NCBI GenBank assembly: GCA_947632375.1
Contig: CANRPF010000013.1
Coordinates: 1-38,846 of the forward strand
Reading direction: 5' to 3'
Length of the DNA: 38,846 nt
Origin: an uncultured Bacilli bacterium
GTDB lineage: Bacteria > Bacillota_I > Bacilli_A > RF39 > UBA660
Of this stretch, positions 1,089-25,187 are shown in pieces; positions within the stretch are counted from its first letter, which is position 1; every line of letters starts with the position of its first letter. The notes under the pieces were generated by a model, which did no database searches, was not told the DNA's origin, and saw only the letters and a program-made list of their open reading frames with translations. The position numbers and the translations under genes were made by a program.

Positions 1089-2047
1089 TTATTCAGTTTT
1101 AACTCCAACTCTTTCAAGCACTTCTTTCATTCCTAATCCACCTTCTTCAATAGGTTTCATACAATAGTTATATAAAGCTGGATGTGTTACCTTTAATTGT
1201 TGGAATCTATTTGGTTCTTTTTCAAGGTGAACGCCAAAAGCACAAAATACACAACCTGTTCTTGAACATCCTGTAGTATAATATTTACCCTTTTTATCTT
1301 TTTTAATTTCCCCATATATCTCATCACAATATGGAATATTAAATCTTTCTAAATATTCAAAAATATCTTGTTCTGTCCAAAAAGATAATGGTTTAGATTG
1401 AGGCCTTTCTTGATCAAAAGCATTGCATCCATATCGATACCATCCATTTTTTCTTATAGCACTTTCACTAGCCATTGTTCCTATAATGGGTTTTAATCCA
1501 GTTTCTTTTTCAAATTTTTTAAAAGGTTTTTTCTTCATGACATCACAGCACTGTGATCCAATAGGGATATTACTATCTTTAAGCCATTTCCATTTTGTAA
1601 CAGAAAAATTGCCATTATATTTTAAATCTTTTTCATTGTTTGGTTCAAAATATTGTGCAACTTTTCCGTCAGGTTTATTTCTTGCGGAAGTAATTTTATG
1701 AGCAATTTCTTTACTTATAAGTGGATAACCATACTTAAAAATAACTTCTTTGAAATTCATATCTGGTTTTAACCATACTATATTTTCTTTTGATTTTACA
1801 AATTTTCTTATTTCTGGGTATTCCAAGCCTGTGTCTGCGAAAGCTCCTATGGCATCAGGATAAACTTTTCGAACTAAATCTAGGAGTACTGTACTGTCCT
1901 TTCCCCTGAAAATGACACATAGATATTATGATTCCACCTCTCGCCCCATTCAAGAATCCTTGTTTGAGATATTTGAATTTTTCTTTCTAGCGGAAGATTT
2001 TGCATATTTTTTAAATCTTCTGCTGTGTACATATTCTTTTTTTGCAT
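1089..2047 (-). CDS. PAPS reductase-family PP-loop protein; reading frame broken by a 1-nt frameshift inside the SGGKDS motif (around 1903-1906)
   Basis: Frame X starts at the ATG 2045-2047 (RBS AAAGGAGG) and reads MQKKNMYTAEDLKNMQNLPLERKIQISQTRILEWGERWNHNIYVSFSGERTVQYS*. Frame Y continues into the supplied 245-aa ORF as ...RGKDSTVLLDLVRKVYPDAIGAFADTGLEYPEIRKF...CCDVMKKKP...GCSRTGCVFCAFG. Inserting one G into the GGGG run (CCCC at 1903-1906 on the plus strand) gives NIYVSFSGGKDSTVLLDL, the canonical PP-loop. Confidence 0.6.
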
Positions 2048-2178
2048 TTTGTGTTTATATTTCCTCCTTTTATTTAATTATATAATTTAAATAATCTTTT
2101 TATTTTACTTATATAATTAATTTTTCAAAATGTTTTTTAGTTTTATTTCCCAAATTATATTTTTCATTATAGAAACCC

Positions 2179-3355
2179 TTAAAAATAATATTTGCACGAG
2201 TCTACTATCTCATAATCTGTGATAAATAATTGTGCTGTGATGTTGCCATTCCATTCATTTTTATTCGCTTCGCCAACACAATCAATTACAACATAACCTT
2301 GATTATTTTCTTGAAGTTTTTTACAATCTAAATCCGTTGCATTAAATAACATTAAACTTACTTTATTAGGTAATGTAATTTTAATTGTATTAGATGTTTT
2401 TCTATAAATAGTTACCATATCTGCGGTAACTTTTAAATTTTTAATAGCTAAAATAGGAGTCTCCATATCTTTTCCCCAAAAACTATCCATCTCTGCTATA
2501 TCAAGAATATTTTGTGGATTAACATTATTACCATCATATATATAATCTACATAGTATATTGCTTCATCAGACATATTTTTTAATGCTTCATTTGTAGATT
2601 GAATAAATGCGGGAATGTCTTGTTCGCGGAGAGCGAGCCCAAAGGCGCCTGGGTGCCCGGCCACATACATCGTTAACCCAGTCCCCGCGCATATATCTTT
2701 AAATTCAGTAACACCAACCTTATCACAGCCCCGCGCAGAGCCTTGATAGGATACTATTGTAGGTGTGTCTATTAAAACAACTTCATCGTCTTTATTTAAA
2801 AATTTAAGTGGCTTAGTTTCTTCTACTTTTGTTAAAATGCAACATGGCCGCTGATATTTAGCCATGAAACGATTTGCAATTAACCCTGCGACATTTTTAT
2901 TAACCTGCCCTGGTTCTACTAAGATAAGAAGAACTTTATTATTAAGTAAATGTTCTTCTTTTATTTTATTTTCAAGAAAAACCATACTTTCATCTTGAAT
3001 TTTATTTTGTTTATTCTTGACATTAATACATATTCTTATAGCTTGTTCAACTAATTGTTCCATTTCTCCTTGTTTATGTCCTCTTTTGGTTGATGGAATT
3101 TGTTGAAAAGCTTTAAAAAAAAGCATTGATTCAAATACTTTTTCTTTTTCCTCTTGATTTCCACTTCTAACTATTGCATTAACAAAAGGAGCAATGTAAA
3201 AAGCTGCTCCCCAGGACGTTATATGATCACCTAATTTAAATTGATTCTTTTGCCACATATTATAAATAAAAGGATTATGAATATTATCTGGTTCAAAACC
3301 TTTATTTATTAAATGCTTTGTTTCAAAAGATAGCAATGACTGCATATCCGCCGTT
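2179..3355 (-). CDS. recJ: RecJ-like DHH-family nuclease, exon 2 (DHHA1 domain)
   Basis: The supplied 438-aa ORF reads, from residue 48 onward, TADMQSLLSFETKHLINKGF... This aligns with the RecJ block TIADVVPLTGENRILVKYGL. The DHHA1 GGGH-like motif YVAGHPGAFG is present. The first 47 codons of the supplied ORF are the intron 3' region, not exon. Confidence 0.75.
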
Positions 3356-4457
3356 CGTAAATTCTTATGTTTCCATAAGCACTGACTATATTTTAATAAT
3401 ACTTTTGTATTACTATATCTCTTTCGGTTTTCATGTGCTTCGTTTCCTAAAACACAGTTACGTACTAATAGTAACCCTACTCCCCAGCATTTCAACCTTA
3501 GGGATAGTCGATACAGGCTTCAAATTACATGTTTCCAAGATTCTCTTTTACAAACAGTTCTAATTGTTCTCGCTTGTACTATTGAAAAATTTTTATGAAT
3601 AGAACTTATTGATTCACCATTATCATATCTTCTACGAATTTCTCTTACATCTGCTTCAGTTAATTTGGATTGTCCATTTCTTTCACCTTTATTAGCTTTA
3701 GATGAATATTCTTGTCTACTGATACTACCTGTTGGAATAATAAATTCTTTTCCTACATTTGGGTATCCATTACCAAGCCATACTTTTTCAAATGTTCCAA
3801 AACTATATTCTTGATAATCTTTATATACGTCCTTTTTTCGCTCACCTTGGTAACGACGTTTTCTTATATTATAGACTTGTTCATCTGTAAAAACTGCGTT
3901 AGCTGAATATTCACCTGTTAAAGAAGAAGTGTCTCCTCCTCCTATTGTTAAATTATATCCAATATCATTATTATTAGAATTATAATATTTTATCCAATAT
4001 TTTTCTCTTTCCTTTAATAAATTAAAATCATCAATATATTCTAAAATTTCTATTTCTGTAAAAGGACCATATTTTTTTATAGCTAAATCACAAGGTGAAT
4101 TAAAATGATGTAATAATCTATTAGGATTATTATGTTCATACATTCGTCTTTTTATATCATTACTTAAACCTATATAAATTTTTCCATTTGGATAATTTAA
4201 TTTATATATTCCAGATACATTATTAGGTAAATCTTTTAATTGTATTATTTCACTCATATTTTTCTCCTTTATTATATAAATATATATGAGTGTTATCTTG
4301 TAATTTGATTCCCACGGGATTTTCATAGTATTTTATAACACTCATGTCATCATGTCATAAATACTTTAGAATTAACCGTTAGCATTTAATAGTCTTTGTC
4401 CAAGATTATTAAATACCCTGCTAGTAAGCAGAAAAGATATATTAGCCCAACAAGCTC
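3356..4457 (-). mobile_element. group I intron carrying a GIY-YIG homing endonuclease gene, inserted in recJ
   Basis: Exon 1 ends ...LDLVALG + cu. P1 forms between the exon end GGCCU and the intron GGGC 10 nt downstream, with a G.U wobble at the splice site. The intron 3' region contains an R-like element (guaucGACUAuccc), an S-like element (aaaAUAUAGUCagug) and a P9 hairpin (CUUAUG-GAAA-CAUAAG). The 3' splice site follows G at 3356. The joined exons read LVALG-L-TADMQSLL, which restores the RecJ motif in frame. The 5' region is homologous to the gyrB intron 5' region. Confidence 0.75.
3520..4326 (-). CDS. GIY-YIG homing endonuclease (intron-encoded)
   Basis: N-terminus reads GIYKLNYPNGKIYIGLSNDIKRRMYEHNN (GIY...YIG...R...E...N). 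It sits inside the recJ intron. RBS AAAGGAG is present. Confidence 0.85.
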   Translation of the reverse strand: MKIPWESNYKITLIYIYIIKEKNMSEIIQLKDLPNNVSGIYKLNYPNGKIYIGLSNDIKRRMYEHNNPNRLLHHFNSPCDLAIKKYGPFTEIEILEYIDDFNLLKEREKYWIKYYNSNNNDIGYNLTIGGGDTSSLTGEYSANAVFTDEQVYNIRKRRYQGERKKDVYKDYQEYSFGTFEKVWLGNGYPNVGKEFIIPTGSISRQEYSSKANKGERNGQSKLTEADVREIRRRYDNGESISSIHKNFSIVQARTIRTVCKRESWKHVI

Positions 4458-5125
4458 AGGCCTAAAGCAACTAAATCAAGATATTTATCTGCATAATGTT
4501 GATTTATTAAACTATCTATATATCTACAAAATTGCCACGTAACTCCAACACCTGATAATTGTTTATTAGGATAATCACTTAATTGATTGTTTATAACAAT
4601 AGCATAAGGAGAGATTTCTTCTGCTTCATGATGATCGAGTATAATAATTTTTGTGCCTATTTTATTTAATCGTTCATGGTAAATTATATCATTTGAACTT
4701 GCGTCTGGTATTACAACTAAATAATATTGTTTTTTCTCTAATAAATCACAATAATCACTTAATCCATGTTGTTTACCATCATGTAAGTACCAATTTAATT
4801 TATTTTCAACCCATGCGGGATATAAATCATATAAATAATTAATTAAAAGCGCGGAGGATGTGTATCCATCCGCATCGGCGTCTACAATAATCGCACATTC
4901 TTTATTAGCTTTTATGCATCCTATAAGCGCGGCCGCCGCGTTTCTTAGCACATCTTCTCCAAATAGCAATGGAGAATTTATATCTTCATCTGTTGTATTA
5001 ATATAATGAGGAATATCCTCTAGCTTAATTCCACGATTCATTAATATAATTTCTAATGCGCTGTATTTTTTTAATTGCTCATCTGCATATTCTTTAATTA
5101 GTTTATATTTCATATTTTTCTCCAA
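4458..5125 (-). CDS. recJ: RecJ-like DHH-family nuclease, exon 1 (DHH domain)
   Basis: IVDADADGYTS carries the DHH motifs I-II and IILDHHE is motif III. It ends ...KYLDLVALG, matching RecJ LDLVALG. The supplied ORF reads on to an in-intron stop (LSLLG*). Confidence 0.8.
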
Positions 5126-5834
5126 TAATCATATCTAGTGTAATTTTATCTCGCTCCCAATATGGAATACGAACGAGAGGAATATTATGTTTTTTTGCTA
5201 TTTCATTTTTAATATTATCTCTTAATTTTCTGTTCTCATAACTGTCGGATTTAAACCATAAATCTCCATCTATTCCAAAATGTTGTTTTCCATCAAATTC
5301 AACCAATTTTATAATTTGATTATTTTTGTCTAAAATTGCAAAATCATATTTTTTTCTTTTATCTTCTTCAAAAGAAAATTGAGAAATATAATTAATATTA
5401 TTCTCGTCTAAAATTTTTTTAATATTTTGTTCTCCAACTGACTCTCGTAAACATCCACATGATTGAACAAGAAAACTATTTAGATTATTAAGAGAAACTT
5501 CTTTAGTATTGCCGCAATCGCATTTACACATCCATACTACAGATCCAAATTCTCTTTTGTCTGTTGGATATAAGGCAACCAATTTTCCAAATCTTTGATT
5601 TGTAATATCTTTATGACTTTTTACTTTTATTCTACAATTTGGGCACATTACTTCTTCTTTTCGTATATGCTGTCCTTCTGCTGAAAAAATAGTATTACAT
5701 TTTAAACATTTACATTTATAATAAATTCTTCCATATCTTCTTTCAGGCTCCTCTTCTAATACGAGCAAATTGTTATAAATTTTATTTATCATTTCAATTT
5801 TTTTCATTTTTCTTCCTCCTATTTTATAGATCAA
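5103..5834 (-). CDS. Zn-ribbon plus DUF559/Vsr-like (PD-(D/E)XK) putative freestanding homing endonuclease, paralog 1
   Basis: Motifs CxxC...CPNC, WMCKCDCGN...SCGC, and a C-terminal block YDFAIL...VEFDGKQH...NIPLVRIPYW. It is paralogous to 32646-33374 and 34842-35672. It overlaps the recJ start by about 23 nt. Confidence 0.6.
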   Translation of the reverse strand: MIYKIGGRKMKKIEMINKIYNNLLVLEEEPERRYGRIYYKCKCLKCNTIFSAEGQHIRKEEVMCPNCRIKVKSHKDITNQRFGKLVALYPTDKREFGSVVWMCKCDCGNTKEVSLNNLNSFLVQSCGCLRESVGEQNIKKILDENNINYISQFSFEEDKRKKYDFAILDKNNQIIKLVEFDGKQHFGIDGDLWFKSDSYENRKLRDNIKNEIAKKHNIPLVRIPYWERDKITLDMIIGEKYEI

Positions 5835-5924: not shown

Positions 5925-7031
5925 TCATAAATATATCCTCTTATTAAACAATTCTAAAAAAACTTCTTTATCTTTATCAATAGGTGAATCTTTATATTCC
6001 AATTTATTTTTTTTATCAAATATAAAACTAATAGTAGCATAAGATGAATATTTTTTATGAATATCCATTAATTTTTTTGTCCATCTTTTAAATTCATCAT
6101 CACCAATTTCTTTAAACTGTTTATCAAAAGCAATAATAATTTCTTCAACGCCTAAAGATAACAATAACTGGACTTGATAAGAAATAAGAGAACTTCCGCA
6201 ACAAGCTACAGTTATATCATTTTCTTCTCCAAAATAGCTCGCGTAAGTAAGACAAAATTTTTCTCCCTCCGCGACTATTGCTTTTTTTATAATCCTTATA
6301 TTATCTTTACTATTATTTAAATTATATAAATTAAAACTAAGTGGATGATTATACATTTTATAATTAATAATAGCAGGACGATATTTTCCTTGATCTTCTT
6401 TTTCTTTAATTAAAGTTCTTTCTCTTATTCCTATTAAATTATTATTTATATCATAATGAGGAATAATAATACCTTGATTAACTGGATCATAAGCTATTCC
6501 CCTATGTAACATAACATTTCTTATAATACCTTCTTTTTCCCAAGGTAAAATATGTGGTAGTGGAAAGAATTTTAATATATCTTTATCATATATTTTTAAA
6601 TCTACTATTTTCTTTTGTTCTTCTTGATTTTTTATATATTCATATTTATCAAGTATTTCCCAATCTTTAAGAACTTTTTTATTTTGATTAAAATCAAAAG
6701 ATTGAGTAGTATAACCAAAATAATTTGTAACAAAAAGAATAGCTTGCGGAAGTGTCCATTCTTCTTTTGTACTAATTGTTTTTTGTTTACGAACTAATTC
6801 AAATATATCAAAACTACTTTCCGCGCATCCAGTATAACAATGAAATATTCCTTCTCCTTCATTGTCATAATAATATAATTTATATGATCCCTGTCCCGCA
6901 GGATTGTGACATATTGTACGAGATATAAAAGAATTACCTTTAATAGGCTGCGGTTCTCCGCCTAAATCTATTACTAATTCATATATTTGTTCTATTGTTA
7001 AAGATTTTTTTAATTCATCTTTATTAATCAA
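5925..7031 (-). CDS. dnaG: DnaG-type DNA primase (Zn-binding domain plus TOPRIM)
   Basis: Zn motif CHNPAGQGSYKLYYYDNEGEGIFHCYTGC. TOPRIM motif AIVAEGEKFCL...IIAFDKQFKEIGDDE. Confidence 0.75.
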   Translation of the reverse strand: MINKDELKKSLTIEQIYELVIDLGGEPQPIKGNSFISRTICHNPAGQGSYKLYYYDNEGEGIFHCYTGCAESSFDIFELVRKQKTISTKEEWTLPQAILFVTNYFGYTTQSFDFNQNKKVLKDWEILDKYEYIKNQEEQKKIVDLKIYDKDILKFFPLPHILPWEKEGIIRNVMLHRGIAYDPVNQGIIIPHYDINNNLIGIRERTLIKEKEDQGKYRPAIINYKMYNHPLSFNLYNLNNSKDNIRIIKKAIVAEGEKFCLTYASYFGEENDITVACCGSSLISYQVQLLLSLGVEEIIIAFDKQFKEIGDDEFKRWTKKLMDIHKKYSSYATISFIFDKKNKLEYKDSPIDKDKEVFLELFNKRIYL

Positions 7032-7297
7032 AATGCAGATTCTTCCTTTACATCAATTCTTAAGTCTTCAATAGGAATAAGTTCATATTGATAATTAGTT
7101 ACAAACATTGGTTCAATTCTACAGGTACCTCTATCACTTTTGCACCATAATAAAATATCTTTATATCTACCTCTACGATTTTTATAAATAGATATTTTTA
7201 TACTAGGTTTTTCAAATCCGCCTTTATTTAGAACTTCTTCTAAAGCGATTATGTCATCTTCACTAGTCTCAAGCATAATCATACCTATATCTATTTT
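7028..7297 (-). CDS. dnaB: DnaB-like replicative helicase, C-terminal exon (exon 2); 5' boundary approximate
   Basis: The tail of the supplied 118-aa ORF (...KIDIGMIMLETSEDDIIALEEV...KISIYKNRRGRYKDILLW...) matches the DnaB C-terminal motif (IIAKnRnGptG). The first ~29 codons of the supplied ORF contain the intron S element and P9, so they are intron. Confidence 0.6.
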   Translation of the reverse strand, partial: KIDIGMIMLETSEDDIIALEEVLNKGGFEKPSIKISIYKNRRGRYKDILLWCKSDRGTCRIEPMFVTNYQYELIPIEDLRIDVKEESAF

Positions 7298-7626
7298 CCT
7301 TAATACTCTTACTTTCATAAGAGAGTAGACTATATCTTTACCATAGAATACATTATATTCCTTAGGTACCCAGTACTTCCACATAATGTGTACTCCCCGC
7401 TACAGGATAGTCGTTGAACCTTCTTCTATTCGAAGCTCGGCTGCATGGTTGCCCATATTATCTATATAATTTTTAAAACATTCACACTTAGGTTTGTTTC
7501 ATCCTTATGTTGTAGTTTATATAGCTTTAGGGTTTTCCAGCAATTCTCTGGGTAATAATCACTTAGTATTTCTACTAAGGACGACTGTTTCTAAAGTTTT
7601 AATAAATTTTAAAACCTTGTCCAATC
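7298..7626 (-). ncRNA. ORF-less group I intron in dnaB; boundaries plus or minus a few nt
   Basis: The minus-strand RNA contains a P2 hairpin CUUAGUA-GAAA-UACUAAG and a Q-like element AGAGAAUUGCUGGAAAACCC (compare Tetrahymena AAUUGCGGGAAAGG). It also has an R-like element caacGACUAuccu, an S element AAAGAUAUAGUC identical to the Tetrahymena S core, and a P9 CUCUUAU-GAAA-GUAAGAG. It is highly similar to the phoH intron (about 90 nt near-identical). Confidence 0.75.
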
Positions 7627-9957
7627 AGCAATAGCTTTTGCACCTCTCAATAGATTCTGATCATATCTTTGCGCAGTTCTAAATTCTGCATTTAATTGAG
7701 TTGCTGTTAAAATAAATATCCCATATTGATTACATAAATCTTTTAATCTAGTTGAAATCATAAATAATATATTATCTTCCCGCAATCCTTTTACTTTTGC
7801 TTTTGAAGATATTTCACTAAGAATTTTCATACTACTATGAATATAATCAAATCCTACATACTTAATATTAAAATCTCTAACGCCTCTTTTAATAGTATTT
7901 TCTATATCCTGCAATGAAAAATCTGGTAATTCTTCTATATAAATAGGACATTTTTTTAATAAATTAGCCGCGTATATTACTCTATTCAATTCATCTCCAT
8001 AGTAAGTATTATAAATAATATGCTCTTCATTAACATTTGCAAGAAAAGCCATCATCATTGTTTGTACTTCATCTAATTCTTGTTCTGTTGTAATAAATAA
8101 AGATGGCTCTTTAGTGCCATTTTTTATCCATTTGCCTTGAGTTAAATCGTATATCTCATCACATGCAATATTACATACATCCGCGATCATAGAACGAGTA
8201 TTATGTGTTACTATATAATCATTCATTAAAAATAAATGCTCTTCATTATCAACATAAAAACAGGTCATTTCTTCTGAATAATTTAATTTTTCTATTTTTA
8301 CAATAGGATTAAATAAATTTAATTCTTTTTTCTTTCCATTATTAAACCAAGATAATATTAAATCATGTTTTCTCTTCAATCTAAATAATTTTATTTTATT
8401 TTGAGGACTACCAATTATTTCTATCTTATAAAGAGGAAGAGAATCTTTATGATTATCTTCTAACCATGAAGCTTTAAAACCTAAACTTAAACATAATTCT
8501 ATTATATTATCTCTTAATTGTGGGCTTACAGTATAATAACTTATTCTACCTTTTTTTGAATCTATTGATCCATCAGTATCTAATAATCCATTTAATAAAT
8601 CTAATCTTTGTTCAACGCTACCTTCAAGATATTGTTTTGGAATAAATTTATCTTCAGATTTACACTGCATTAATTCAGGATATTCTTTAAGAGCTTCTTC
8701 TACCCAAACATTTATATGAGTATTACAATTAGGATCTTCAAAATTCCAATTATAATTAAATTTACTCGTTTTTTTACAAATCCAATTCATTTCATTAGCA
8801 AGAGCAGTTGGTAGTTCTTCATTTTTACTACTGAAAGATAGTGCTTTATTGCTCTTAGAATATCTAAAACTTCCATCTCCCAATAATAATCCCATGGTAT
8901 AGGGAGTTAAATAAAAATTCTTTTTAGAATACTGTACAGGTTGCTGCATAGGAATTAAAATTTGATAACCATGTCCATTTTTATATAATGGCATATTATT
9001 AATTTCTTTTAAAGTTTTTGTATTAAATTTTCTGGATAATTTAGATTCTTTTTTTTGTCCTTCAGTACAAAAACTCCATAAATGTTCATCACAACATTTT
9101 GCTTTTCTACCATCTTTAAAAGATATTTCCCATACTTCTTTTTCTCCTTGAGGATAAACAGCTTTAACTTTAGTTGGTTTCCCAAAAGCATCAAAAAGAT
9201 AATCTCCCACCTTAATATCTTCAACTTTCCGTTGCCCTTGAGGAGTTGGAAGAATAGTTGAATTAGGCAATGCTTTTCCTACTCCTGTTGAAGCTGATCT
9301 AAGATAAAATTTCTTTAAGCGGGCGCCGCGTGTAATTGTATTAATAATAGGTCCATAAAGCGGATAGCCTATTTCAGGAGTTGTTTGAAGGCGTTTTATT
9401 AGCTCTAAGGCACCGTCACCTGCGTTTACTAATATATTTTCTTTATTATCAACACAATTTAATCTTATATCTAAAATTTTTTGATCAATTATATCGGCAA
9501 TATCTTCAATAGAATGATTGTCGAGCCAATCTTCTTGAGCCTGTTTCTTTTTTATATCTAATATATTATCTATATCATATAACCAAGAAAGATCCATTCC
9601 TAAATCTTGATAAGCTCTTAATAATGTCATTTTTTTCATTCTATTGTAATAATAATCAAAAGCAGCTAATTGAGTAGTCTCACTTATTTTTTGAAGATAT
9701 TCCGCGCCTTTATATGTTTTATATACAGCTAATTTTTTTGGTCGTTGTGCTAAATAATCTTCTATTGCGGTGATATTTATTTTAATAGCTCCAAGAGCAT
9801 GAAGATTATAAATTGAACCAAATAAGATTCTATGAAATTCTTCAGGAAAATCTTCTTCTCTAAAATTGTATTTATCTTCTATATCTAATAAAGATGGATT
9901 GTTATAAATACCACCTATTACCTGAATAATTGCTGCCGTATCTACATATTTACCCAT
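7627..9957 (-). CDS. dnaB: DnaB-like replicative helicase, exon 1, including an in-frame intein (8200-9273)
   Basis: The N-terminus has DnaB features. The Walker A sequence is interrupted: ...LRSASTGVGK | intein | TRSMIADVCNIA. Removing the intein restores GVGKT. The H4-like region is ...LRGAKAIA. Confidence 0.8.
8200..9273 (-). mobile_element. intein (358 aa) with a LAGLIDADG homing-endonuclease domain, inserted in the DnaB P-loop
   Basis: It begins at Ala229 (ALPNSTIL...) and ends ...YIVTHN, with +1 Thr. Two LAGLIDADG motifs are present, LLGDGSF and LLDTDGSI. Excision gives a 424-aa DnaB with an intact GxxGxGKT. Confidence 0.8.
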
Positions 9958-9965
9958 CTTTTATT

Positions 9966-10475
9966 TTACTCCTTATCTAAATCAAATAATTTATTTTTTT
10001 TTCTTTCTGAATTAGGAGAAACAATTTGAATCATTTTTATTTTAGGTTTATAATCTTCAATATTCTTTCCCTCATTCGCGGTTTTTGCTAAATATAAACT
10101 ATAATAATAGTCATGTGCTTTATCATATATATAAGGAATAATACCTATTCCATAATTAGCTTCTTCATTCTTAAATTTATGGCCTTTTATTTCATACCAA
10201 TAAAATAAAGTTTTTAACATGCCAGAATAACTATATTTATATTCTTGTCGATAATCTCTTATTTGTTTTCTTACTTTTGCATTAATATAATTTTGACCAA
10301 ATAAATTTTTAATATATTTTTCTAATTCTTCAAGATCTTCTTCATCTTTAGTTTTTTTAGTTAAATATTTTTCTGCGCATTCTTTATGGGCATATTGTCT
10401 TTCTTTTATTTTTACAAACTCTATTTTGTCTCTATCAAATTTTTCTTTACAATAAATACAAGTAACATAATGCAT
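9966..10475 (-). CDS. hypothetical protein with an N-terminal Zn-ribbon-like CxxC...HxxC
   Basis: Complete ORF with RBS AAGGAG. No recognisable family. Confidence 0.4.
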   Translation of the reverse strand: MHYVTCIYCKEKFDRDKIEFVKIKERQYAHKECAEKYLTKKTKDEEDLEELEKYIKNLFGQNYINAKVRKQIRDYRQEYKYSYSGMLKTLFYWYEIKGHKFKNEEANYGIGIIPYIYDKAHDYYYSLYLAKTANEGKNIEDYKPKIKMIQIVSPNSERKKNKLFDLDKE

Positions 10476-10508
10476 TAATTTGCACTCCTTTGTATTTCTT
10501 CTCTTATA

Positions 10509-10537
10509 ATTATAACATATTTTTTCATATAAATCAA
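10509..10537 (-). promoter_or_regulatory. sigma70-like promoter TTGATT-17-TATAAT with a TGt extended -10
   Basis: Minus-strand sequence is TTGATTtatatgaaaaaatatgtTATAAT, followed by RBS AAGGAG and the ATG of 9966-10475. Confidence 0.5.
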
Positions 10538-10542
10538 ATTAA

Positions 10543-10562
10543 GGCGCGGTATATACCGCGCC
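10543..10562 (-). terminator. rho-independent terminator after the AAA_24 ATPase gene
   Basis: Perfect palindromic hairpin GGCGCGGTATATACCGCGCC, followed by a U-rich stretch on the minus strand. Confidence 0.5.
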
Positions 10563-10566
10563 TATT

Positions 10567-11208
10567 TTATTTAAGCCATTCTTTTAATTCAGTATTAATC
10601 ATTTGAATCATTTCTACTTGATCTCTTGTGCATTGATTAATTTTTTTACCTTTACCTAAGTATTTTTCTATAATATGAGTAATCTTAGGACTATAATCTT
10701 GTTCAAATTCTTCTTTATCAATAGTTTCAATAAGGTTGTTAATCATTGAATTAAATTCATTTATTAATTTATCAAAATCTAATTCTTCTGCTTTTGTTAT
10801 AACATTTTTTTCTGTTGTGATATAATCTTCGCCATGTACTTCTGCTTCTTTATCAATAGCGATATTTAAAGCTTCTACAAGAGCATCATAAGATGAATGA
10901 ATTTCAGATGGAATATATTTTAGGCGGCCGCCGCATCTTACTGAACCATCTAAACTTCTTAAAGTAATAACAACCTCATTTTTACCATCTTTAAAAACTG
11001 GATGCAAGTATCCATAAATATCAACCATATTTTCTACAATACTATTATAACTAGTCGATACACTTGGATAAATTTGTGTAAATTCTGTACCATCTTGTCT
11101 TTTAAAAGTTCCCTCTTTGGAATGAGAAATAAATACAATAGCATAACCTAACTGTGCTATTGCTTGAAAGACATCTTCAAATTCTTTCTTTAAAGCTGAC
11201 CATCCTCC
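10567..11208 (-). CDS. Sak4/AAA_24-like phage ATPase, exon 3
   Basis: GGWSALKKEFEDVFQAIAQLGYAIVFISHSKE... shows an ISH sensor typical of RecA-like AAA_24 proteins. The supplied ORF's TTG 'M' is the last intron codon. The 3' splice site follows G at 11209. Confidence 0.65.
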   Translation of the reverse strand, partial: GGWSALKKEFEDVFQAIAQLGYAIVFISHSKEGTFKRQDGTEFTQIYPSVSTSYNSIVENMVDIYGYLHPVFKDGKNEVVITLRSLDGSVRCGGRLKYIPSEIHSSYDALVEALNIAIDKEAEVHGEDYITTEKNVITKAEELDFDKLINEFNSMINNLIETIDKEEFEQDYSPKITHIIEKYLGKGKKINQCTRDQVEMIQMINTELKEWLK

Positions 11209-12326
11209 CAATTATGTTATCGTAAAGGTTTTTTATCCTTTACTTCTTACATTTACTTATTCATGTAAGTTCAGCATATCTTTTAATCTTATTGCTCTGA
11301 AATAAGATCCGAAGCCTCGTGGGAACTATATTTCAATAATAATTCAGTATAATGCAAATATTTTCTTTGCATTCTAAGAGCTTTTGTAGAAGGTAATTTA
11401 TAAAATAATTTATATAATTTTAATCCATTTTCATAATTATAAAAATAAAGTCTATATATTTGTAAATTTACTATTGAAGATTTTTTAGTTATTTTAGAAT
11501 GAATATCATATTCTTTTAACACTTTTTGAATATGTTCTAAAGTTGCTAAAGAAGTTGAATCTATTTGCCAAGAAATCGTTCCATTGCTCCATTTAATAGA
11601 TCCGTCGCCATCAAAAAAACCTCTTATAAAATCAATATAATATTTTGGTTCGATATTTCGTAAAAAATCTAAATTATAATTTGTTTTGTTTGGTATTATA
11701 TTATATAAACTAAGGTCTTTTTTTATTTGCATTGAAAAGAAATATAGTTTACTATTTTTAGTACCTTTACTATGATTTTCATAATCTTTTACAGGTCTTT
11801 CATTTTGAATTTCACTGTTTATTTTCTCTAAGATTTCCTTATCTTGTCTTTGTAATTCTATATATATTTGATTTTGACTTTTTGCTACGCACCCATCAGA
11901 TGCCAACATCCCTAAAATATATGCAGAATTATGAGACTGATTATGAATATCAAAATAGTTATCATTTATTTTATAAGTTCTATTGCTTAATTTGGAATTA
12001 TTAAAGTTACTTGTACGTCTAATTTCAATATTATTTTCTTGTAAAACTCTAACTATGACTTTATCCGTATGATTATATCTTTTAGCTATTTTTTTTCTAG
12101 GCTCTCCATTTTTATAACTTTCACAAATATCCTTTATTTCTTCTTTTGAAAAATTTACTCGTTTAGCCATACCGGTCAAACTCCTTCTATATTATTGTTT
12201 AATGTTCCTATGCGTTGCGCGTGTTATAACTTTTAAATTATAACTTCCGCTCTGATTAGCATTTCAGCCTTCCAGTTTTTGCTTCGTTTTCACTAATATA
12301 TCACTATACTAGGCGGCAGAGATCCT
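11209..12326 (-). mobile_element. group I-type intron 2 of the ATPase gene, carrying a LAGLIDADG HEG
   Basis: Exon 2 ends ...EVPYG with ggU. The intron 5' core (12200-12300) is homologous to the intron 1 5' core (13610-13700). The exon 2 + exon 3 frame is restored. R/S core elements were not confidently identified. Confidence 0.6.
11289..12179 (-). CDS. LAGLIDADG homing endonuclease with an N-terminal HTH (intron-encoded)
   Basis: Motifs AYILGMLASDGCV and IRGFFDGDGSI. The likely true start is MAKRVNF, with RBS GGAG upstream. Confidence 0.8.
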   Translation of the reverse strand: MTGMAKRVNFSKEEIKDICESYKNGEPRKKIAKRYNHTDKVIVRVLQENNIEIRRTSNFNNSKLSNRTYKINDNYFDIHNQSHNSAYILGMLASDGCVAKSQNQIYIELQRQDKEILEKINSEIQNERPVKDYENHSKGTKNSKLYFFSMQIKKDLSLYNIIPNKTNYNLDFLRNIEPKYYIDFIRGFFDGDGSIKWSNGTISWQIDSTSLATLEHIQKVLKEYDIHSKITKKSSIVNLQIYRLYFYNYENGLKLYKLFYKLPSTKALRMQRKYLHYTELLLKYSSHEASDLISEQ

Positions 12327-12592
12327 ACCGTATGGAACTTCACCAAGAGCATTTACTCCTTTTTGTGAACAAATATATTTTTCACACATTGTAGCAGCTC
12401 TATCAACTGTATCAATTACTATTGTAGAAAATTTTTCTTTTACTCCCTCTTTAGCTAATTCTCTAACTACTTGTTTAATATCTGACCATTTTGTAATATC
12501 TTGGGCAAATACACCAGGTAGTGCATTGTACCCTCTTTCAGTTGCTAATAAAAGAGGGTTTGGAAACTGCGATGCTAAAGTCGACTTCCCTG
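12327..12592 (-). CDS. Sak4/AAA_24-like phage ATPase, exon 2
   Basis: (S)GKSTLASQFPNPLLLATERGYNAL...STIVIDTVD carries the Walker A GKST and Walker B IVID. The upstream part of the supplied 135-aa ORF is intron. Confidence 0.7.
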
Positions 12593-13730
12593 CTTTTGGC
12601 ATTATCTTATTAATTAGGTTTTTTATCCTAATTCTGGAGGTTTCCCTCATCATTATATTCGGAAAGTTTAGGAATATAACTACAATCAGTCTTTTCTGAT
12701 TCAGATGAGCATACATTTTCTACCTTCTTTTTAAAGGTAGCCTTGGCTCGTGGGTCTAATTTTTCTATTCTATAAGAACAAAAATCTAAAAATTTATCTT
12801 TCTTTCTCTGTAAACATGGACTATCACTCATGAAAGAATAGAACCGATTTAATATCACATAGCTTCCAATAGTAGAGATTTCTAATGAATATAAATTATT
12901 CCCAGATGGTTTTAAATTACAATAAATACCAACATGACAATTATATTCGGATTCAATTAATTTTTTAAATTCTTCTAAAATTCCTTTTTTATAAGAACAA
13001 ATTTTAAATGTTCCTTGTAAAGTATTTTTATTCCAAGAAAAAGAACCATCGCCATCAAAATACCCTTTTAAAAAGTACCATTTAAGATTATTATCTGGAA
13101 TATTTTTCATTGTTATTCCAATATAAGTTTTATCTGGAATAATAGAATACTTTTTTAAATCTTCTTTTATTTGTTTAGAATTAAATCTATAACTAGAAAT
13201 AGCATACCCCTTATTATTTATTGTAGATGAAATCTTATGAGCAGATTTCAACTTTTTTTTAAATTCTTCTAGCCATTTAATATCAATAGAAGCTAAAGCA
13301 ATTTTAATTTCATTATCTTTTTTTCTAACAGTTCCATCTGCTGCTAAAAAACCTAAATAATAAGTATTCTCATTATTTAATTGACTGAAATATCCATGAT
13401 CAATAGCAAAGCCTCTGCTTTGATTTGTAATAATTAATTGCTCACGTCTATTGCGGATATGGATATGTTCATTATTTAAAATTTTTTTTATATCATCTAT
13501 GTGAATATTATAATCTTTTGAGCATTGAGTTAAAGATTTACCATTTTTATAATCTTCAATCAATAGGTTGTTCATAAATAAAACAAGCACTCCTTTTTAA
13601 ATTTTCTTATAGTTTCAGACCGATGCGTTGCGCGTGGCGCGACTTTTAAATCGCGCCTTCCGCTCGTATTAGCATTTTAAAGCCTTTACGGTTTTCCAAG
13701 GTAGTTCACAGTTACATTACTGCAACTGGG
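12593..13730 (-). mobile_element. group I-type intron 1 of the ATPase gene, carrying a LAGLIDADG HEG
   Basis: The 5' splice site follows U of ...caagugggU. The 3' splice site follows G of ccaaaaG. The junction gives GPQVGS|GKST, a perfect Walker A. Confidence 0.65.
12628..13590 (-). CDS. LAGLIDADG homing endonuclease with an N-terminal HTH (intron-encoded)
   Basis: Motifs LGFLAADGTV and LKGYFDGDGSF. The probable ATG is at MNNLL (around 13575), with RBS AAAGGAG. Confidence 0.8.
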   Translation of the reverse strand: MLVLFMNNLLIEDYKNGKSLTQCSKDYNIHIDDIKKILNNEHIHIRNRREQLIITNQSRGFAIDHGYFSQLNNENTYYLGFLAADGTVRKKDNEIKIALASIDIKWLEEFKKKLKSAHKISSTINNKGYAISSYRFNSKQIKEDLKKYSIIPDKTYIGITMKNIPDNNLKWYFLKGYFDGDGSFSWNKNTLQGTFKICSYKKGILEEFKKLIESEYNCHVGIYCNLKPSGNNLYSLEISTIGSYVILNRFYSFMSDSPCLQRKKDKFLDFCSYRIEKLDPRAKATFKKKVENVCSSESEKTDCSYIPKLSEYNDEGNLQN

Positions 13731-13818
13731 ACCCCACTTGAGGTCCGTATATATACGTAAAATATCCAGTCAAATCTCTTGATACCTTGTGGGGTTGAAG
13801 ATTTAATAAATCAATCAT
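13731..13818 (-). CDS. Sak4/AAA_24-like phage ATPase, exon 1 (29 codons + 1 nt)
   Basis: A strong RBS AGAGGAGG sits 7 nt before the ATG. The exon reads MIDLLNLQPHKVSRDLTGYFTYIYGPQVG(S), which is the AAA_24 N-terminal kilIyGppGsG pattern. It lies immediately after the upstream gene's stop. Confidence 0.65.
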
Positions 13819-13841
13819 TTATATCCTCCTCTATATCTCGA

Positions 13842-14801
13842 TTAAAAATTAAAAGTCCCATTAGTTACTGAATTTGTTACAAAAGAAGAAACATCACTCT
13901 TCGCTATTGAAGCTTGTGGTGCCGCAGCTTTATTTGCACGATATTCATCGCTTCTTTTCTTAACATCTGCAAGATATACTTCACGATTCTGCATTGCAGT
14001 TGTTAAATCTTTTCTTTCTTCTTCTCCAAACTCATAAGGAGTTCTTGCTGCTTGTGTAATCACCCATTCTTTTGTTGTCCTGGTTGAATTTGTAACTATA
14101 GCTTCTCCAAACGCGGTTTCCTCTGTGCGCGGAATTACAATAGTAGAACAAACAACATTACCCCAAATCTTAGTATATACTGGATTATTAGGACTTACAC
14201 CAAGACTTTCAAAATAACTAATGCCTGCGGGATTCTTAACTACAAAATCAAAAGGAAGAACATCATTTCTAAAATTAAAAATAGCTCCTTTCACAGAAAG
14301 ATAACCATCTTTGATACCTCTCTCTTCATCTGCCTCAATATTTATTACATTAGTAATAACAATATCAGCAATAAAAGTATTTCTATCAGATTCATTATCT
14401 TTTAAATCTGAAACCAGAGAAACAAATCCGCCCTCATTTGTTTTTGCAGATACAAGTGTATTATCCTGAGTATAAAAATCATTTAATGCCATTGCTACTC
14501 CATCAACACTTACTTTTGTAGCTTCATCTTTTCCAGATGTTACCCAGGACTTTCCTTCATCAATAATTTTCTTTAACGCGGTAAAAGTATTATTTCTTCC
14601 GCCTTTCTTTGTAGTTTCTGTTACATATGTGAAATGAACTGGCAATACATTAAGACCATTTTCATCTGTTGCGATTTCAAGATTTCCTGAAATAAATTCT
14701 TTTCCAAAATTTTCTGATTTTTGATTTTGTACTGTTTTAATTGCTAAATTATGTTGATAAATTCTACCTTCTATATGTTGAGTATTAATTGCTTTGCGCA
14801 T
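13842..14801 (-). CDS. hypothetical protein, possibly an ssDNA-binding or recombination-associated protein given its position beside the AAA_24 ATPase
   Basis: Complete 319-aa ORF with RBS AAAGGAG. It ends ...NGTFNF. No motif recognised, so the function call is contextual only. Confidence 0.25.
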   Translation of the reverse strand: MRKAINTQHIEGRIYQHNLAIKTVQNQKSENFGKEFISGNLEIATDENGLNVLPVHFTYVTETTKKGGRNNTFTALKKIIDEGKSWVTSGKDEATKVSVDGVAMALNDFYTQDNTLVSAKTNEGGFVSLVSDLKDNESDRNTFIADIVITNVINIEADEERGIKDGYLSVKGAIFNFRNDVLPFDFVVKNPAGISYFESLGVSPNNPVYTKIWGNVVCSTIVIPRTEETAFGEAIVTNSTRTTKEWVITQAARTPYEFGEEERKDLTTAMQNREVYLADVKKRSDEYRANKAAAPQASIAKSDVSSFVTNSVTNGTFNF

Positions 14802-16958: not shown

Positions 16959-17909
16959 TTAATTATTCCCTTTAGTTGCATTATAACCTATGATATTAGA
17001 TTGATAGATTTCAATCCATCTTTTTTCTTCTGCATCTAATCTTTCTCTAGGACATTCTTCTAACAATTCAAAACTAAAGTTCCATACACCATCTTTTTGC
17101 ATTGTATTATATAATCTATTAGTCGCGGGAGCGTCAATCCCCAGCCCGCATTTAATATGTTGTTTCATACGATCTTGGACATTAACACTTTGTCCTACAT
17201 AGCATTGCTTTGTTTTTAAATTTGTTATTTTATAAATTCCACAAATTTGTTTATTTCCAAATATACGATTACACATTTCTGTAGTTTGTTTTTGAAAATA
17301 AGTAGACCAAATTAATTTACTTAATATTATTGGATTATGTAACATTAATTTAATTGAATTAAGTTTTTCTATATCTTCTAAATCAATAGCAGAAACAGAT
17401 AATTTATAAAAATCCAACCTTTCTTCTTTTTCTCGTTCGCGGAGCTGCGCCTTAGTGGCGGCATTAATTTGATCTATTATAGTTTTATATTGAGTCTCCG
17501 CGCTCTTTATATCTTCTACAACTTTCTTTTGTTTTATGTGTAACTCATTTATTCTTTCTTTATAGTCAATTTCAGCTTCATCATACGCATCCTCAATTTG
17601 TTCAAAATATTTAGCACTAGCATAGTCTGCATTCTGTTGAAATATTTTTAATTGTTCAGATATTTTATTTTTTTCTTTTTCACATATGTTATCAATTTTT
17701 TGTTTTTCATTTTCTAAAATTTTATCTAATTCAATTTTATCTTTATGAAGTTGATTAATTTCATTTTGTAATTTATTTTTTAAATTGGTTTGTATTTGAT
17801 TTTTTTCAACTGTAATATGATTAGCTTTATTTATAAGATAAAGACCTAAACTAATTAAAAAGCATCCAATAATAATACTTATTGTAATTAAAACTTGTAC
17901 AATTCCCAT
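16959..17909 (-). CDS. membrane-anchored coiled-coil protein with a C-terminal GIY-YIG nuclease domain
   Basis: N-terminal TM helix VLITISIIIGCFLISLGLYLI. This is followed by about 170 aa of heptad-rich coiled coil. The C-terminal domain carries ICGIYKITNLKTKQCYVGQSVNVQDRMKQHI...RWIEIY. Confidence 0.65.
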   Translation of the reverse strand: MGIVQVLITISIIIGCFLISLGLYLINKANHITVEKNQIQTNLKNKLQNEINQLHKDKIELDKILENEKQKIDNICEKEKNKISEQLKIFQQNADYASAKYFEQIEDAYDEAEIDYKERINELHIKQKKVVEDIKSAETQYKTIIDQINAATKAQLREREKEERLDFYKLSVSAIDLEDIEKLNSIKLMLHNPIILSKLIWSTYFQKQTTEMCNRIFGNKQICGIYKITNLKTKQCYVGQSVNVQDRMKQHIKCGLGIDAPATNRLYNTMQKDGVWNFSFELLEECPRERLDAEEKRWIEIYQSNIIGYNATKGNN

Positions 17910-23954: not shown

Positions 23955-25187
23955 CACATAATTCCATTATTTCTAATGGTGCTGACTATCTTTTAACTAA
24001 TATAATATTAGCAACACCCATTTCGAACTACGTATCAATAGCAGCTCTACTCCTCCGATCCGAGGATAGTCGATACAGCTTTTCAGGTTATCTTATAGGA
24101 TATTGTTCTTCTTTTTGTTTATAAATAGTGCCACAATTTATTGCACTAACTGTTTTTGATGAAATATTAAATCTTCTTGAAATGCTTGCTAAACTTTCTT
24201 TTGGATTTTTCTTTATTTCTTCAATAATTTGTTTCACTTGCTCATCTGTTAATTTTTTTGAACCAACTTTATGTTTTTTTCTTATTGGATAAGATAATTC
24301 TTTTTTTACATATGATTTTCCATTATTTATATTTTGTATAACAGATGGCCAAACATTAAATTTTTTAGCTATTTCAGCCATTGATATTCCATTTTCATCT
24401 TGTAAGAACTCTATTATTTTTTGAAGATCATTTTCATTTAATTTTGAATTACAGTTTTTAGTTCCAGAAACAATTACTTTACTTTGTTTACTATCTCTAA
24501 TAGGATATTTTACAGAAGAATGAAAATAAGTATGTCCTTGATTAATAGCAGAAAGAGTTGAGATATGAATATTATATTTTTTTGCAATATCTTCCATACT
24601 TATTTCTAAATTTTCTCTTAATTCTTTATAAACTTCTTGAATTTGCTCCTCTGTAAATTTAGCTTGATTATTTTCGCTACCTAATCCGGCGCCATCTCCG
24701 CCCAAACTAATATTATATCCTTTTTTCTTATTACTACTATCATAAAAATTAATCCAATATCTTTCTCTTTCACGAGATAATTCAATATTTTCTGGGTTAA
24801 TTTCTTCTAAAATATCAAATTCAGTAATTTTTCCATACTTCATAATAGCATATTCTATTGGAAGATGATTTCTAAAATCGTTATTATGTTCTAACATTCT
24901 TCGATAAATATTATTACTTCTTCCAATATAATTTTTGCCATTTGGAAATGTAATTTTATAAATTCCACTGTAAACTAAATTAACTGAACAATCTTGCATT
25001 TTTATATGTTTCATATAAAATACCTACCTTTCTATCTGATATTCTATATGAAAAACAATTCTATAAGATTAACCTTCTTTGCCACGGGATTATCATGCTT
25101 TATTATAAAGTTTAGACTTCCCCGTTAGCACATCTTATTGATGTACCCTGCTGATTAGCAGAAAAGGTGTAACAGGCAGTATTATCT
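23955..25187 (-). mobile_element. group I intron with a GIY-YIG HEG in the topoisomerase B gene; 5' junction tentative
   Basis: The intron 3' region has an R-like element aucGACUAucc, an S-like element aaaagAUAGUCagc and a P9 hairpin CCAUU-agaaau-AAUGG. The 3' splice site follows G of guG at 23955. The 5' region is homologous to the recJ intron. The junction GIG|SKLVCFLS aligns with GyrB GVGVSVVNALS. A convincing P1 pairing was not found, so the 5' site may be off by a few nt. Confidence 0.7.
24088..25014 (-). CDS. GIY-YIG homing endonuclease (intron-encoded) with tandem C-terminal HTH-like DNA-binding repeats
   Basis: N-terminus reads SGIYKITFPNGKNYIGRSNNIYRRMLEHNN...RERERYWINFY. The C-terminus carries three repeated ...MEDIAKKYNIHISTLSAINQG-like modules. 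Confidence 0.85.
   Translation of the reverse strand: MKHIKMQDCSVNLVYSGIYKITFPNGKNYIGRSNNIYRRMLEHNNDFRNHLPIEYAIMKYGKITEFDILEEINPENIELSRERERYWINFYDSSNKKKGYNISLGGDGAGLGSENNQAKFTEEQIQEVYKELRENLEISMEDIAKKYNIHISTLSAINQGHTYFHSSVKYPIRDSKQSKVIVSGTKNCNSKLNENDLQKIIEFLQDENGISMAEIAKKFNVWPSVIQNINNGKSYVKKELSYPIRKKHKVGSKKLTDEQVKQIIEEIKKNPKESLASISRRFNISSKTVSAINCGTIYKQKEEQYPIR

Follow-up and report, generated by a model that had tools for sequence, protein, structure and literature searches.

A predicted class 3 intein and group I intron in one DnaB-type replicative helicase gene of a putative SPbeta-like phage

The DNA described here is a stretch of 38,846 nucleotides (nt) from an uncultured Bacilli bacterium (assembly GCA_947632375.1, contig CANRPF010000013.1, positions 1 to 38,846 of the forward strand), referred to below as the window. 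Its minus strand contains an interrupted yorI/dnaB-type replicative helicase gene (7028..9957), with the ATG at 9957 and the stop codon at 7030..7028. Very probably, this gene holds both a class 3 intein and a group I intron, and the active enzyme is obtained through RNA splicing followed by protein splicing.

The interrupted helicase gene and its intein

In the list of open reading frames (ORFs), the gene appears as two pieces on the minus strand, namely an ORF of 782 amino acids (9957..7609) and one of 118 amino acids (7384..7028). The long ORF reads ...STGVGK/ALPNSTILPT...YIVTHN/TRSMIAD... and ends in ...LLRGAKAIADWTRF and a stop codon, while the short ORF reads ...VLRKIDIGMIML...EESAF before its stop. 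Pfam profiles place the DnaB N-terminal domain (PF00772), LAGLIDADG_3/Hom_end, and DnaB_C (PF03796) on the 782-residue ORF. The two DnaB domains, the C-terminal one being RecA-like with Walker A, Walker B, and the H4 Arg motif, together with an alignment to Thermus aquaticus DnaB (2Q6T) that continues through LRESGSIEQDAD, identify the product as a DnaB-family helicase of the SPbeta YorI type. The gene is composed of the N-extein (9274..9957, residues 1-228, with STGVGK of Walker A at its end), the intein (8200..9273), the first part of the C-extein and end of exon 1 (7624..8199, residues 229-420, from Thr+1 in TRSMIAD... to ...LLRGAKAIAD), the intron (7298..7623), and exon 2 (7031..7297, residues 421-509, KIDIGMIML...EESAF). 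Removal of both elements yields a predicted mature helicase of 509 amino acids. This doubly spliced protein has more than 6,000 relatives in a database search, the closest of which comprise 511-513 amino acids and are collinear with it at 100% query coverage and 70-86% identity. The protein P0001 is 86% identical across 100% of the length. The nearest homologue from an isolate is SPbeta yorI (39% identity over 97% of the query), which is recovered by tblastn as a single, uninterrupted piece. A megablast of the helicase gene against 50,697 phage genomes gave 0 matches, and relatives in phage genomes at the protein level are of the SPbeta yorI type only, with at most 40% identity.

The intein consists of 358 amino acids and is located between GVGK and TRSMIAD. 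It starts with ALPNS and ends with VTHN, followed by Thr+1, and the ORF is continuous. In homologues lacking the intein, GVGK directly precedes T/S-R. A P-loop intein in dnaB with Ala1, a terminal His-Asn, Thr+1, and a double LAGLIDADG domain, splitting GVGK from T, had been proposed in an earlier sequence-only reading, and this description is borne out by the ORF, the Pfam profiles, the PDB alignment, and a structural model. The Pfam profile LAGLIDADG_3 matches the intein with an expect value (E) of 2.7e-11, and Hom_end also matches. Both LAGLIDADG motifs, LLLGDGSF (residues 129-136, 8889..8866) and LLDTDGSI (residues 230-237, 8586..8563), keep their acidic residue. Sequence matches in the PDB comprise gp41-1, in engineered and native form, MchDnaB1 (6RIX/6RIY), and Msm DnaBi1 (6BS8).

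Class 3 inteins lack an N-terminal nucleophile and contain a Trp-Cys-Thr (WCT) triplet, usually in combination with Thr or Ser at +1 and usually in the P-loop of a helicase (Tori et al., PMC2807308). The triplet consists of Trp at position 12 of block B, Cys at position 4 of block F, and Thr at position 5 of block G, and class 2 is defined by its absence (PMC2807308). The Cys-His-Thr triad and the Trp of class 3 have been described structurally by Beyer et al. (PMC7664689). In the alignment with 6RIX, His64 and Trp66 of the window intein, located in CDEHLW (9093..9076), correspond to His65 and Trp67, Cys338 in MTCFYV (8268..8251) corresponds to Cys124, and Thr356-His357-Asn358 (8211..8200) corresponds to Thr143-His144-Asn145. 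All sequence features of class 3 are found, namely Ala1, WCT (Trp66-Cys338-Thr356), the C-terminal His-Asn, and Thr+1. From Ala1, the sequence-only reading had suggested class 2 or class 3. The class 3 half of this suggestion holds, with the WCT triplet aligned to 6RIX, whereas the class 2 half does not, given the triplet and Thr+1. By sequence criteria, the intein is assigned to class 3, and class 2 is excluded because the WCT triplet is present.

An AlphaFold2 model of the intein (57 sequences) has a predicted local distance difference test score (pLDDT) of 95.7 and a predicted template modelling score (pTM) of 0.93. A Foldseek search with this model returns endonuclease-bearing inteins first, with PI-SceI at a query-based template modelling score (TMq) of 0.70-0.74 and E of about 1e-16, as well as TliVMA and PI-PfuI. 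It also returns I-DmoI for the endonuclease part and gp41-1, Msm DnaBi1, and MchDnaB1 for the HINT part. The double-LAGLIDADG endonuclease is apparently intact, and the intein is probably still mobile. In its position in a helicase P-loop and in Ala1, WCT, His-Asn, and Thr/Ser+1, the intein resembles the class 3 DnaB inteins of mycobacteriophage Bethlehem, M. smegmatis (DnaBi1, 6BS8), and M. chimaera (DnaB1, 6RIX), which share a proposed phage origin with it. In contrast to the solved class 3 mini-inteins of about 130-145 amino acids, the 358-residue window intein contains a full LAGLIDADG domain in a PI-SceI-like architecture. The identity of its HINT part to solved class 3 inteins is only about 24-38%, and its host is a phage from low-G+C gut or rumen bacteria, whereas the solved class 3 examples are actinobacterial.

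A database search with the intein identified 221 relatives, located in the P-loops of DnaB_C, PhoH, UvrD, AAA_24, AAA_33/KTI12, and guanylate-kinase-like proteins. The A/W/C/T/HN/T pattern is present in 73 of the 89 relatives in which all sites are aligned. Among aligned homologues, Cys is found in 109/109, W in 105/109, T in 105/106, Ala1 in 93/102, and Thr+1 in 102/106, and the residues before the intein are GxGK. Inteins at the same helicase site are 79% (locus L016) and 68% (L021/P0099) identical to that of the window, and the identities of their exteins (52-67% and 73%, respectively) are discordant with these values. Alleles without the intein read ...ggaaag/actcgt..., and the allele in L022 reads ...ACAGGCGTAGGAAAG/ACTCGTTCAATG.... 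Among these relatives, the proteins P0139-P0240 have this class 3 intein with LAGLIDADG after GxGK, many of them being unrelated P-loop ATPases on metagenomic phage-like contigs, including PhoH, UvrD/AAA_19, AAA_24, AAA_33/KTI12-like, and guanylate-kinase-like proteins. By sequence, this distribution points to a class 3 intein family that jumped repeatedly between P-loops.

The group I intron and its relatives

The second interruption is an IA-like group I intron of 326 nt, which starts with UGGACAAGG and ends with UAUUAAGG, the terminal G being located at 7298. An ORF-less group I intron of about 330 nt near motif H4 had been proposed for dnaB. Its presence is supported by Rfam, family covariation, and the junction deduced from homologues, and its exact extent is 326 nt (7623..7298). 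The position was given in the right region, yet the site lies inside motif H4 rather than merely near it, because AIAD/KID falls on SIEQ/DAD of LRESGSIEQDAD in the alignment with T. aquaticus DnaB (2Q6T). The description as ORF-less is also right, since stops occur in all frames, though a 16-20-codon remnant of an endonuclease gene is retained. The search with the Rfam model Intron_gpI, suggested by the same reading, resulted in an RF00028 match above the gathering score (65.8 bits vs 50, E 2.9e-16) that covers model positions 1-253 of 253 at 7306..7604 (minus strand). This match was obtained when at most 1 kb was scanned.

The boundaries of the intron were derived from homologues. In an alignment of ten sequences, LLRGAK-IADKID is invariant, and AIADKID is conserved in hundreds of uninterrupted homologues of 511-513 amino acids. 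The boundaries are unique because only one pair yields the AIADKID of these proteins; alternative splice junctions were ruled out, as no other pair does so. Exon 1 ends at U7624 (GCU GAU), and exon 2 opens at 7297 (AAA AUA GAU). The predicted spliced junction is GCUGAU/AAAAUAGAU in the RNA and AIADKIDIGMIMLETSEDDIIALEEVLNK in the protein. Excision restores the reading frame of the host gene, joining AIAD to KID collinearly with uninterrupted homologues. Without excision, an in-frame stop follows WTRF, 4 codons inside the intron.

At this codon boundary, 13 more loci hold homologous introns; their contigs are independent and come from different samples. When species-representative genomes were scanned, 20 loci with helicase relatives were obtained. 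According to tblastn, the interruption in L004 and L012 falls exactly between residues 420 and 421 and measures 1160 and 1168 nt, respectively. Both inserts begin with TGGACAA and end with TATTAAGG, as in the window, and each holds a double-LAGLIDADG ORF of 274-277 amino acids. A search with a 30-nt P1/P2 pattern identified ten more loci in viral and metagenome collections, all at the same helicase codon boundary, with intron lengths of 1146-1217, 557, and 320 nt. Eight distinct intron sequences were aligned (alignment A2) after removal of the P1-loop insert, and a structure of 74 pairs was built by hand. Standard pairs occupy 97.6% of the cells, compared with 31-44% when the partners are slid by 1-3 columns. 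Changes on both sides were found at 22 pairs, compared with 2-5 in the slid controls, and 0/500 shuffles reached the observed covariation. These changes are located in the P1 extension, P3, P5a, P5b, P6a, P8, and P9, with P3 alone contributing four covarying pairs and up to four pair types.

The 3' strand of P1, which carries the internal guide CAGUC (7583..7587), pairs with the exon sequence GAU (7626..7624) and the intron bases UG (7623..7622). In the minimum-energy fold with the exon included, U7624, with which the exon ends, lies opposite G39 (window 7585) in a U·G wobble. This U·G at the 5' splice site and the intron end ...AAGG are each present in 8/8 sequences, and the 5/5 pairs of the guide helix form in all 8 sequences, all of them invariant. 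The P1 extension hairpin (7593..7618, AAGGUUUUAA...UUAAAACUUU), in which one pair is exchanged between GC, CG, and UA, closes the loop that in related introns accommodates a LAGLIDADG endonuclease gene. Three RNA elements named in the sequence-only reading (Q-like, R, and S) were located as AAUUGCUGGAAA (7545..7534), UCAACGACUAU (7417..7407), and AAGAUAUAGUC (7338..7328). The GNRA-capped P2 and P9 hairpins that it listed are likewise present, both with GAAA loops (7579..7562 and 7323..7306). P2 (7562..7579) comprises 7 bp and is invariant in the family, whereas P9 (7306..7323), also of 7 bp, changes on both sides at 5/7 pairs.

The core between these hairpins is supported by Rfam and the fold, and in P3, P5a, P5b, P6a, and P8 also by covariation. 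The segment 7418..7553 opens with the 5' strand of P3 (7553..7548) and with P4, which includes AAUUGCUGGAAA. P5 then carries a long extension, P5a/P5b (7532..7452), after which come the P4 3' strand (7448..7441), where one additional U is found at 7445, and finally P6/P6a (7441..7418). The 5' strand of P7 lies in UCAACGACUAU and pairs with the 3' strand in AAGAUAUAGUC. The 3' strand of P3 (7373..7368), whose partner is 7553..7548, is followed by P8 (7367..7340), which has the same three lines of support. Extra helices P7.1 and P7.2 between P7 and the 3' strand of P3 define subgroup IA. The window intron has a 34-nt insert at the position expected for them, where P7.1 (7406..7396, CCUG/CGGG) and P7.2 (7390..7380, CACA/UGUG) can form.

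The lost endonuclease gene of the intron is represented by a remnant that reads FIKTLETVVLSRNTK followed by a stop codon (7559..7606, minus strand) and overlaps the 3' strand of P1 and P2. In related introns, the LAGLIDADG gene is placed in the P1 loop, and its last 13 codons (KTLETVVLSRNTK and a stop) overlap the guide sequence and P2. In tblastn searches with the L004 endonuclease, the gene was found at full length in L004, L012, L029, L025-28, and L031. L032-34 keep only residues 194-274, an 81-codon remnant, L030 keeps residues 259-274, and the window matches residues 255-274 at 70% identity. The window intron is best read as a version whose endonuclease gene was lost. It is possible that the ancestor of the family was instead a bare ribozyme that an endonuclease gene invaded later; the 81-codon remnant argues for loss over such an invasion. 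This series is a cross-section of metagenomic contigs. The endonuclease ORFs of L025-L028/L031 contain in-frame stops, and their interpretation as pseudogenes was rejected as the simplest reading, as all 7/7 stops are TAG. These comprise 5/5 in L025 and 2/2 in L028, several of them at positions where relatives have Gln, which suggests that TAG is read as a sense codon in these contigs of phage rather than that the endonucleases decayed. The homing cycle is said, in the model of Goddard and Burt, to pass through invasion, endonuclease decay, and loss. The family resembles such a cycle in its intact genes (L004, L012, L029), the 81-codon remnant (L032-34), the 16-20-codon remnants (window, L030), and empty sites.

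Empty intron sites read ...gctattgcagat/aaaatagat... and are found in L001, L002, L005, L016, L021, and L022. Among the 34 loci collected, 0 carry both intein and intron. The ribozyme core of the window is 95.8% identical to that of L004, compared with 75.7% for the adjoining 300 nt of exon. This gap therefore indicates lateral transfer of the intron, as judged from sequence identity. The P4-P7 core has blastn matches in 223 phage genomes, mostly unannotated.

The intron shares several features with phage IA introns (T4 td/nrdB/nrdD, SPbeta nrd, Twort, and the DNA polymerase of SPO1/Bastille), including a small AT-rich ribozyme in a conserved motif of DNA metabolism, candidate P7.1/P7.2 helices between P7 and P3', an early in-frame stop, and the existence of ORF-containing and ORF-less versions. 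The genes carried by well-studied phage introns are mostly of the GIY-YIG or HNH type and lie in the loops of P6, P8, or P9. The present family differs from phage IA introns in its helicase H4 site and in its LAGLIDADG endonuclease in the P1 loop. The literature searched revealed neither this insertion site nor any DnaB-type helicase gene with a group I intron, which is weak negative evidence.

Two further insertions were observed beside this family. In L015 (2275..3287), a homologous helicase gene is interrupted elsewhere, by roughly 1 kb inserted at residues 343 to 346 (FDY/IHSS, in the Walker B region); the insertion holds a GIY-YIG ORF of 237 amino acids (2478..3191). This adds a third invasion site in the helicase family to the P-loop site of the intein and the H4 site of the intron. 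The window itself contains a second ORF-less group I intron (29207..29533, minus strand; RF00028, 53.5 bits vs a gathering score of 50, E 1.2e-12), which splits a PIN+PhoH gene into an ORF at 29486..30331, matching PhoH profile positions 1-66, and an ORF at 28779..29219, matching positions 92-198. Its P4-P6 region and that of the helicase intron share about 90% identity, whereas P1/P2, P7.1/7.2, P8, and P9 differ. By sequence, the two introns are either related or have exchanged their P4-P6 domain.

Proposed maturation and competing readings

In the proposed course of events, two homing-type selfish elements would have invaded the helicase gene independently, so that the active helicase would require two successive self-splicing steps. 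In the first step, exogenous guanosine bound in P7 would attack at U7624·G39, and the terminal G7298 would then direct exon ligation, joining ...GCU GAU to AAA AUA GAU... (AIAD-KID). Translation of unspliced mRNA would end 4 codons into the intron and result in a helicase without its last 89 residues. The spliced mRNA would yield a precursor of 867 amino acids, in whose Walker A loop the 358-residue intein separates Lys228 from Thr229. No ATP binding would be expected until the intein leaves, because it splits this loop. In the second step, Cys338 of block F, aided by His64 and Trp66, would attack the Lys228-Ala1 bond to form a thioester branch; Cys338 is proposed for this role rather than residue 1, as residue 1 is Ala. 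The N-extein would then be passed to Thr+1, Asn358 would cyclise, and an O-N shift would yield GVGK-T. This chemistry is modelled on the published class 3 and group I mechanisms. With its endonuclease gene lost, the intron would persist as a bare ribozyme and spread only by recombination or by an endonuclease acting in trans.

Several observations weigh against this proposal. That both elements splice is a prediction from the nucleotide and protein sequences. Rfam scans of the entire 38.8-kb window, in gathering and E-value modes, gave no match, the composition of the primary sequence being atypical. These misses are attributed to filter loss in AT-rich DNA; the two introns pass the gathering score in scans of at most 1 kb. 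The silence of Rfam on this contig is therefore not evidence of absence, and further ribozymes may have escaped detection in the AT-rich window. The thermodynamic z-score of the intron alone is modest (-2.4). By eye, P10 is weak, with only about 3 A-U pairs to be drawn from AAAAUAG of the 3' exon to the bases on the 5' side of the guide, and no such pairing is claimed. P1, P2, P4, P6, and P7 are fully paired but invariant, hence covariation neither supports nor contradicts them. The pattern used to search for relatives contained P2 and the guide sequence, which biases the sample and partly imposes their invariance, and for P2 there is no covariation information because it lay within that pattern. 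P7.1 is paired in only 59% of family cells, where the alignment is shifted in a length-variable region. Finally, the extra U at 7445 (intron position 179) gives CCAUGCAG, compared with CCAGCAG/UCAGCAG in 7/7 other family members. It bulges the P4 core helix by one base and could weaken catalysis; the extra base may reflect an error in sequencing, a variant that the ribozyme tolerates, or a defect.

This bulge, which is missing from the 7 other family members, is also compatible with the reading that the intron is a decaying relic without efficient self-splicing. In that case, the helicase gene would either be a pseudogene or rely on a splicing cofactor or another helicase. The loss of the endonuclease gene down to a 16-20-codon remnant and the origin of the sequence from an assembly of unknown viability agree with such decay. 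Nevertheless, the other core elements are intact, and 100% of the scored pairs of the window intron form. Exon 2 is conserved and in frame without degeneration, and the spliced protein is 86% identical to P0001 over its full length. Moreover, the independent ORF-less intron of L030 and the second ORF-less intron of the window suggest that bare ribozymes are maintained, and loss of the endonuclease with splicing kept is a normal middle stage of the homing cycle. A relic is thus clearly unlikely.

For the intein, a class 2 (KlbA-like) route has been considered, with direct attack of the +1 nucleophile on the N-terminal junction, as has the possibility that the intein is splicing-dead. Ala1 taken alone fits class 2, and grafting WCT onto the class 1 intein gp41-1 gave no splicing, which indicates that WCT is insufficient alone (PMC7664689). 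Class 2 is, however, defined by the absence of WCT (PMC2807308), whereas W66, C338, and T356 align with solved class 3 catalytic residues, and the +1 residue is Thr, as in class 3, whereas KlbA has Cys. The pattern is kept in 73/89 natural homologues with Cys invariant, and the ORF is intact over 358 codons in an essential P-loop. This explanation is considered very unlikely. That the ORF break is an assembly or sequencing artefact, a frameshift, or the border between two separately translated helicase fragments, as the two ORFs given by gene callers (782 and 118 amino acids) and the empty whole-window Rfam scans might suggest, has next to no probability and is already refuted by the full-length group I model match, family-wide covariation, an insert precisely missing from empty alleles, and the same codon boundary in 13 independent contigs.

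Genomic setting and significance

The helicase gene is followed by a primase-like Toprim gene (7031..5925, minus strand), whose start overlaps the helicase stop. Further neighbours are an AAA_24 (YorG-like) gene, a YorH-like ORF, gyrase-like topoisomerase subunits, a ligase, and a RecJ-like gene. Relatives, whose contigs measure about 140-150 kb, have the gene order YorF / AAA_24 / YorH / helicase / primase. By its gene content, the neighbourhood is assigned as an SPbeta-like phage replication module. The G+C content of the DNA is 29%, and the window would derive from a large phage or prophage, SPbeta-like in type, whose host is a low-G+C bacterium of the gut or rumen.

Other genes of the window are interrupted as well. 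The YorG-like AAA_24 gene is in pieces (10567..13590, minus strand), with one ORF (12309..12716) matching profile positions 11-90 and containing the P-loop PKAGKST, and another (10567..11211) matching positions 102-180. A LAGLIDADG ORF (11289..12179) lies between these pieces, and a second one (12628..13590) just upstream of the ORF that holds the P-loop; each shares 30-34% identity with the endonuclease of the helicase intron family (E 3e-25 and 4e-18). Rfam scans of this region (10400-13900 and 11950-12450) gave no ribozyme match. The RecJ-like gene is apparently split (2179..5125, minus strand) into a DHH ORF (4442..5125) and a RecJ_OB ORF (2179..3495), with a GIY-YIG ORF (3520..4326) between them, and an Rfam scan of 2000-5300 gave no match. 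More GIY-YIG ORFs are located at 16959..17909 and 24088..25014. A 587-residue ORF (37051..38814, minus strand) matches the shoulder domain of the Major Vault Protein (PF11978, E 2e-25) as well as a vault repeat and SPFH/Band 7, which is an unusual domain set for a neighbour of a phage replication region.

The nrdE gene of SPbeta (SPBc2; bnrdE) combines a group I intron with an intein in one gene (Lazarevic 1998/2001, as relayed in PMC3653736 and PMC2504315). Like nrdE, the helicase gene is an essential gene of DNA metabolism with RNA-level and protein-level self-splicing elements, and neighbouring genes are invaded too. The replication module likewise resembles the YorF-YorG-YorH-YorI-YorJ order of SPbeta. 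In contrast to SPbeta nrdE, the host gene is a DnaB-type helicase, a yorI homologue, instead of a ribonucleotide reductase, and the intein is of class 3. Both kinds of element are already known, as is, since nrdE, their co-occurrence in one phage gene, and no concept is changed. The helicase H4 intron family with its graded series of endonuclease loss is apparently undescribed so far. With its H4 site and a P1-loop LAGLIDADG gene that overlaps the guide, it would be the first group I intron family described in DnaB-type helicase genes.

In standard pipelines, the helicase gene comes out as two ORFs, and its intron goes unnoticed when Rfam is run on the whole contig of AT-rich DNA; systematic mis-annotation of genes of this kind is the consequence. 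A regulatory role of the two elements has also been considered. The mycobacterial DnaBi1 intein is reportedly sensitive to oxidation and zinc. It is a tentative and rather unlikely idea that both elements here act as a two-layer conditional switch on phage replication, with Cys338 making maturation oxidation- or zinc-sensitive. If true, phage DNA replication would be gated by host physiology.

The locus represents a clean natural example of an essential replication gene that is predicted to need both RNA and protein self-splicing. Its exact boundaries, its predicted catalytic residues, and a set of relatives are now in hand, the latter comprising empty sites, alleles with the intron only or the intein only, and endonuclease genes in various stages of decay. 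The full-length class 3 intein with its endonuclease could help to study how class 3 splicing coexists with an endonuclease domain. Furthermore, the allele set makes the homing cycle traceable in uncultured phages of the gut and rumen.

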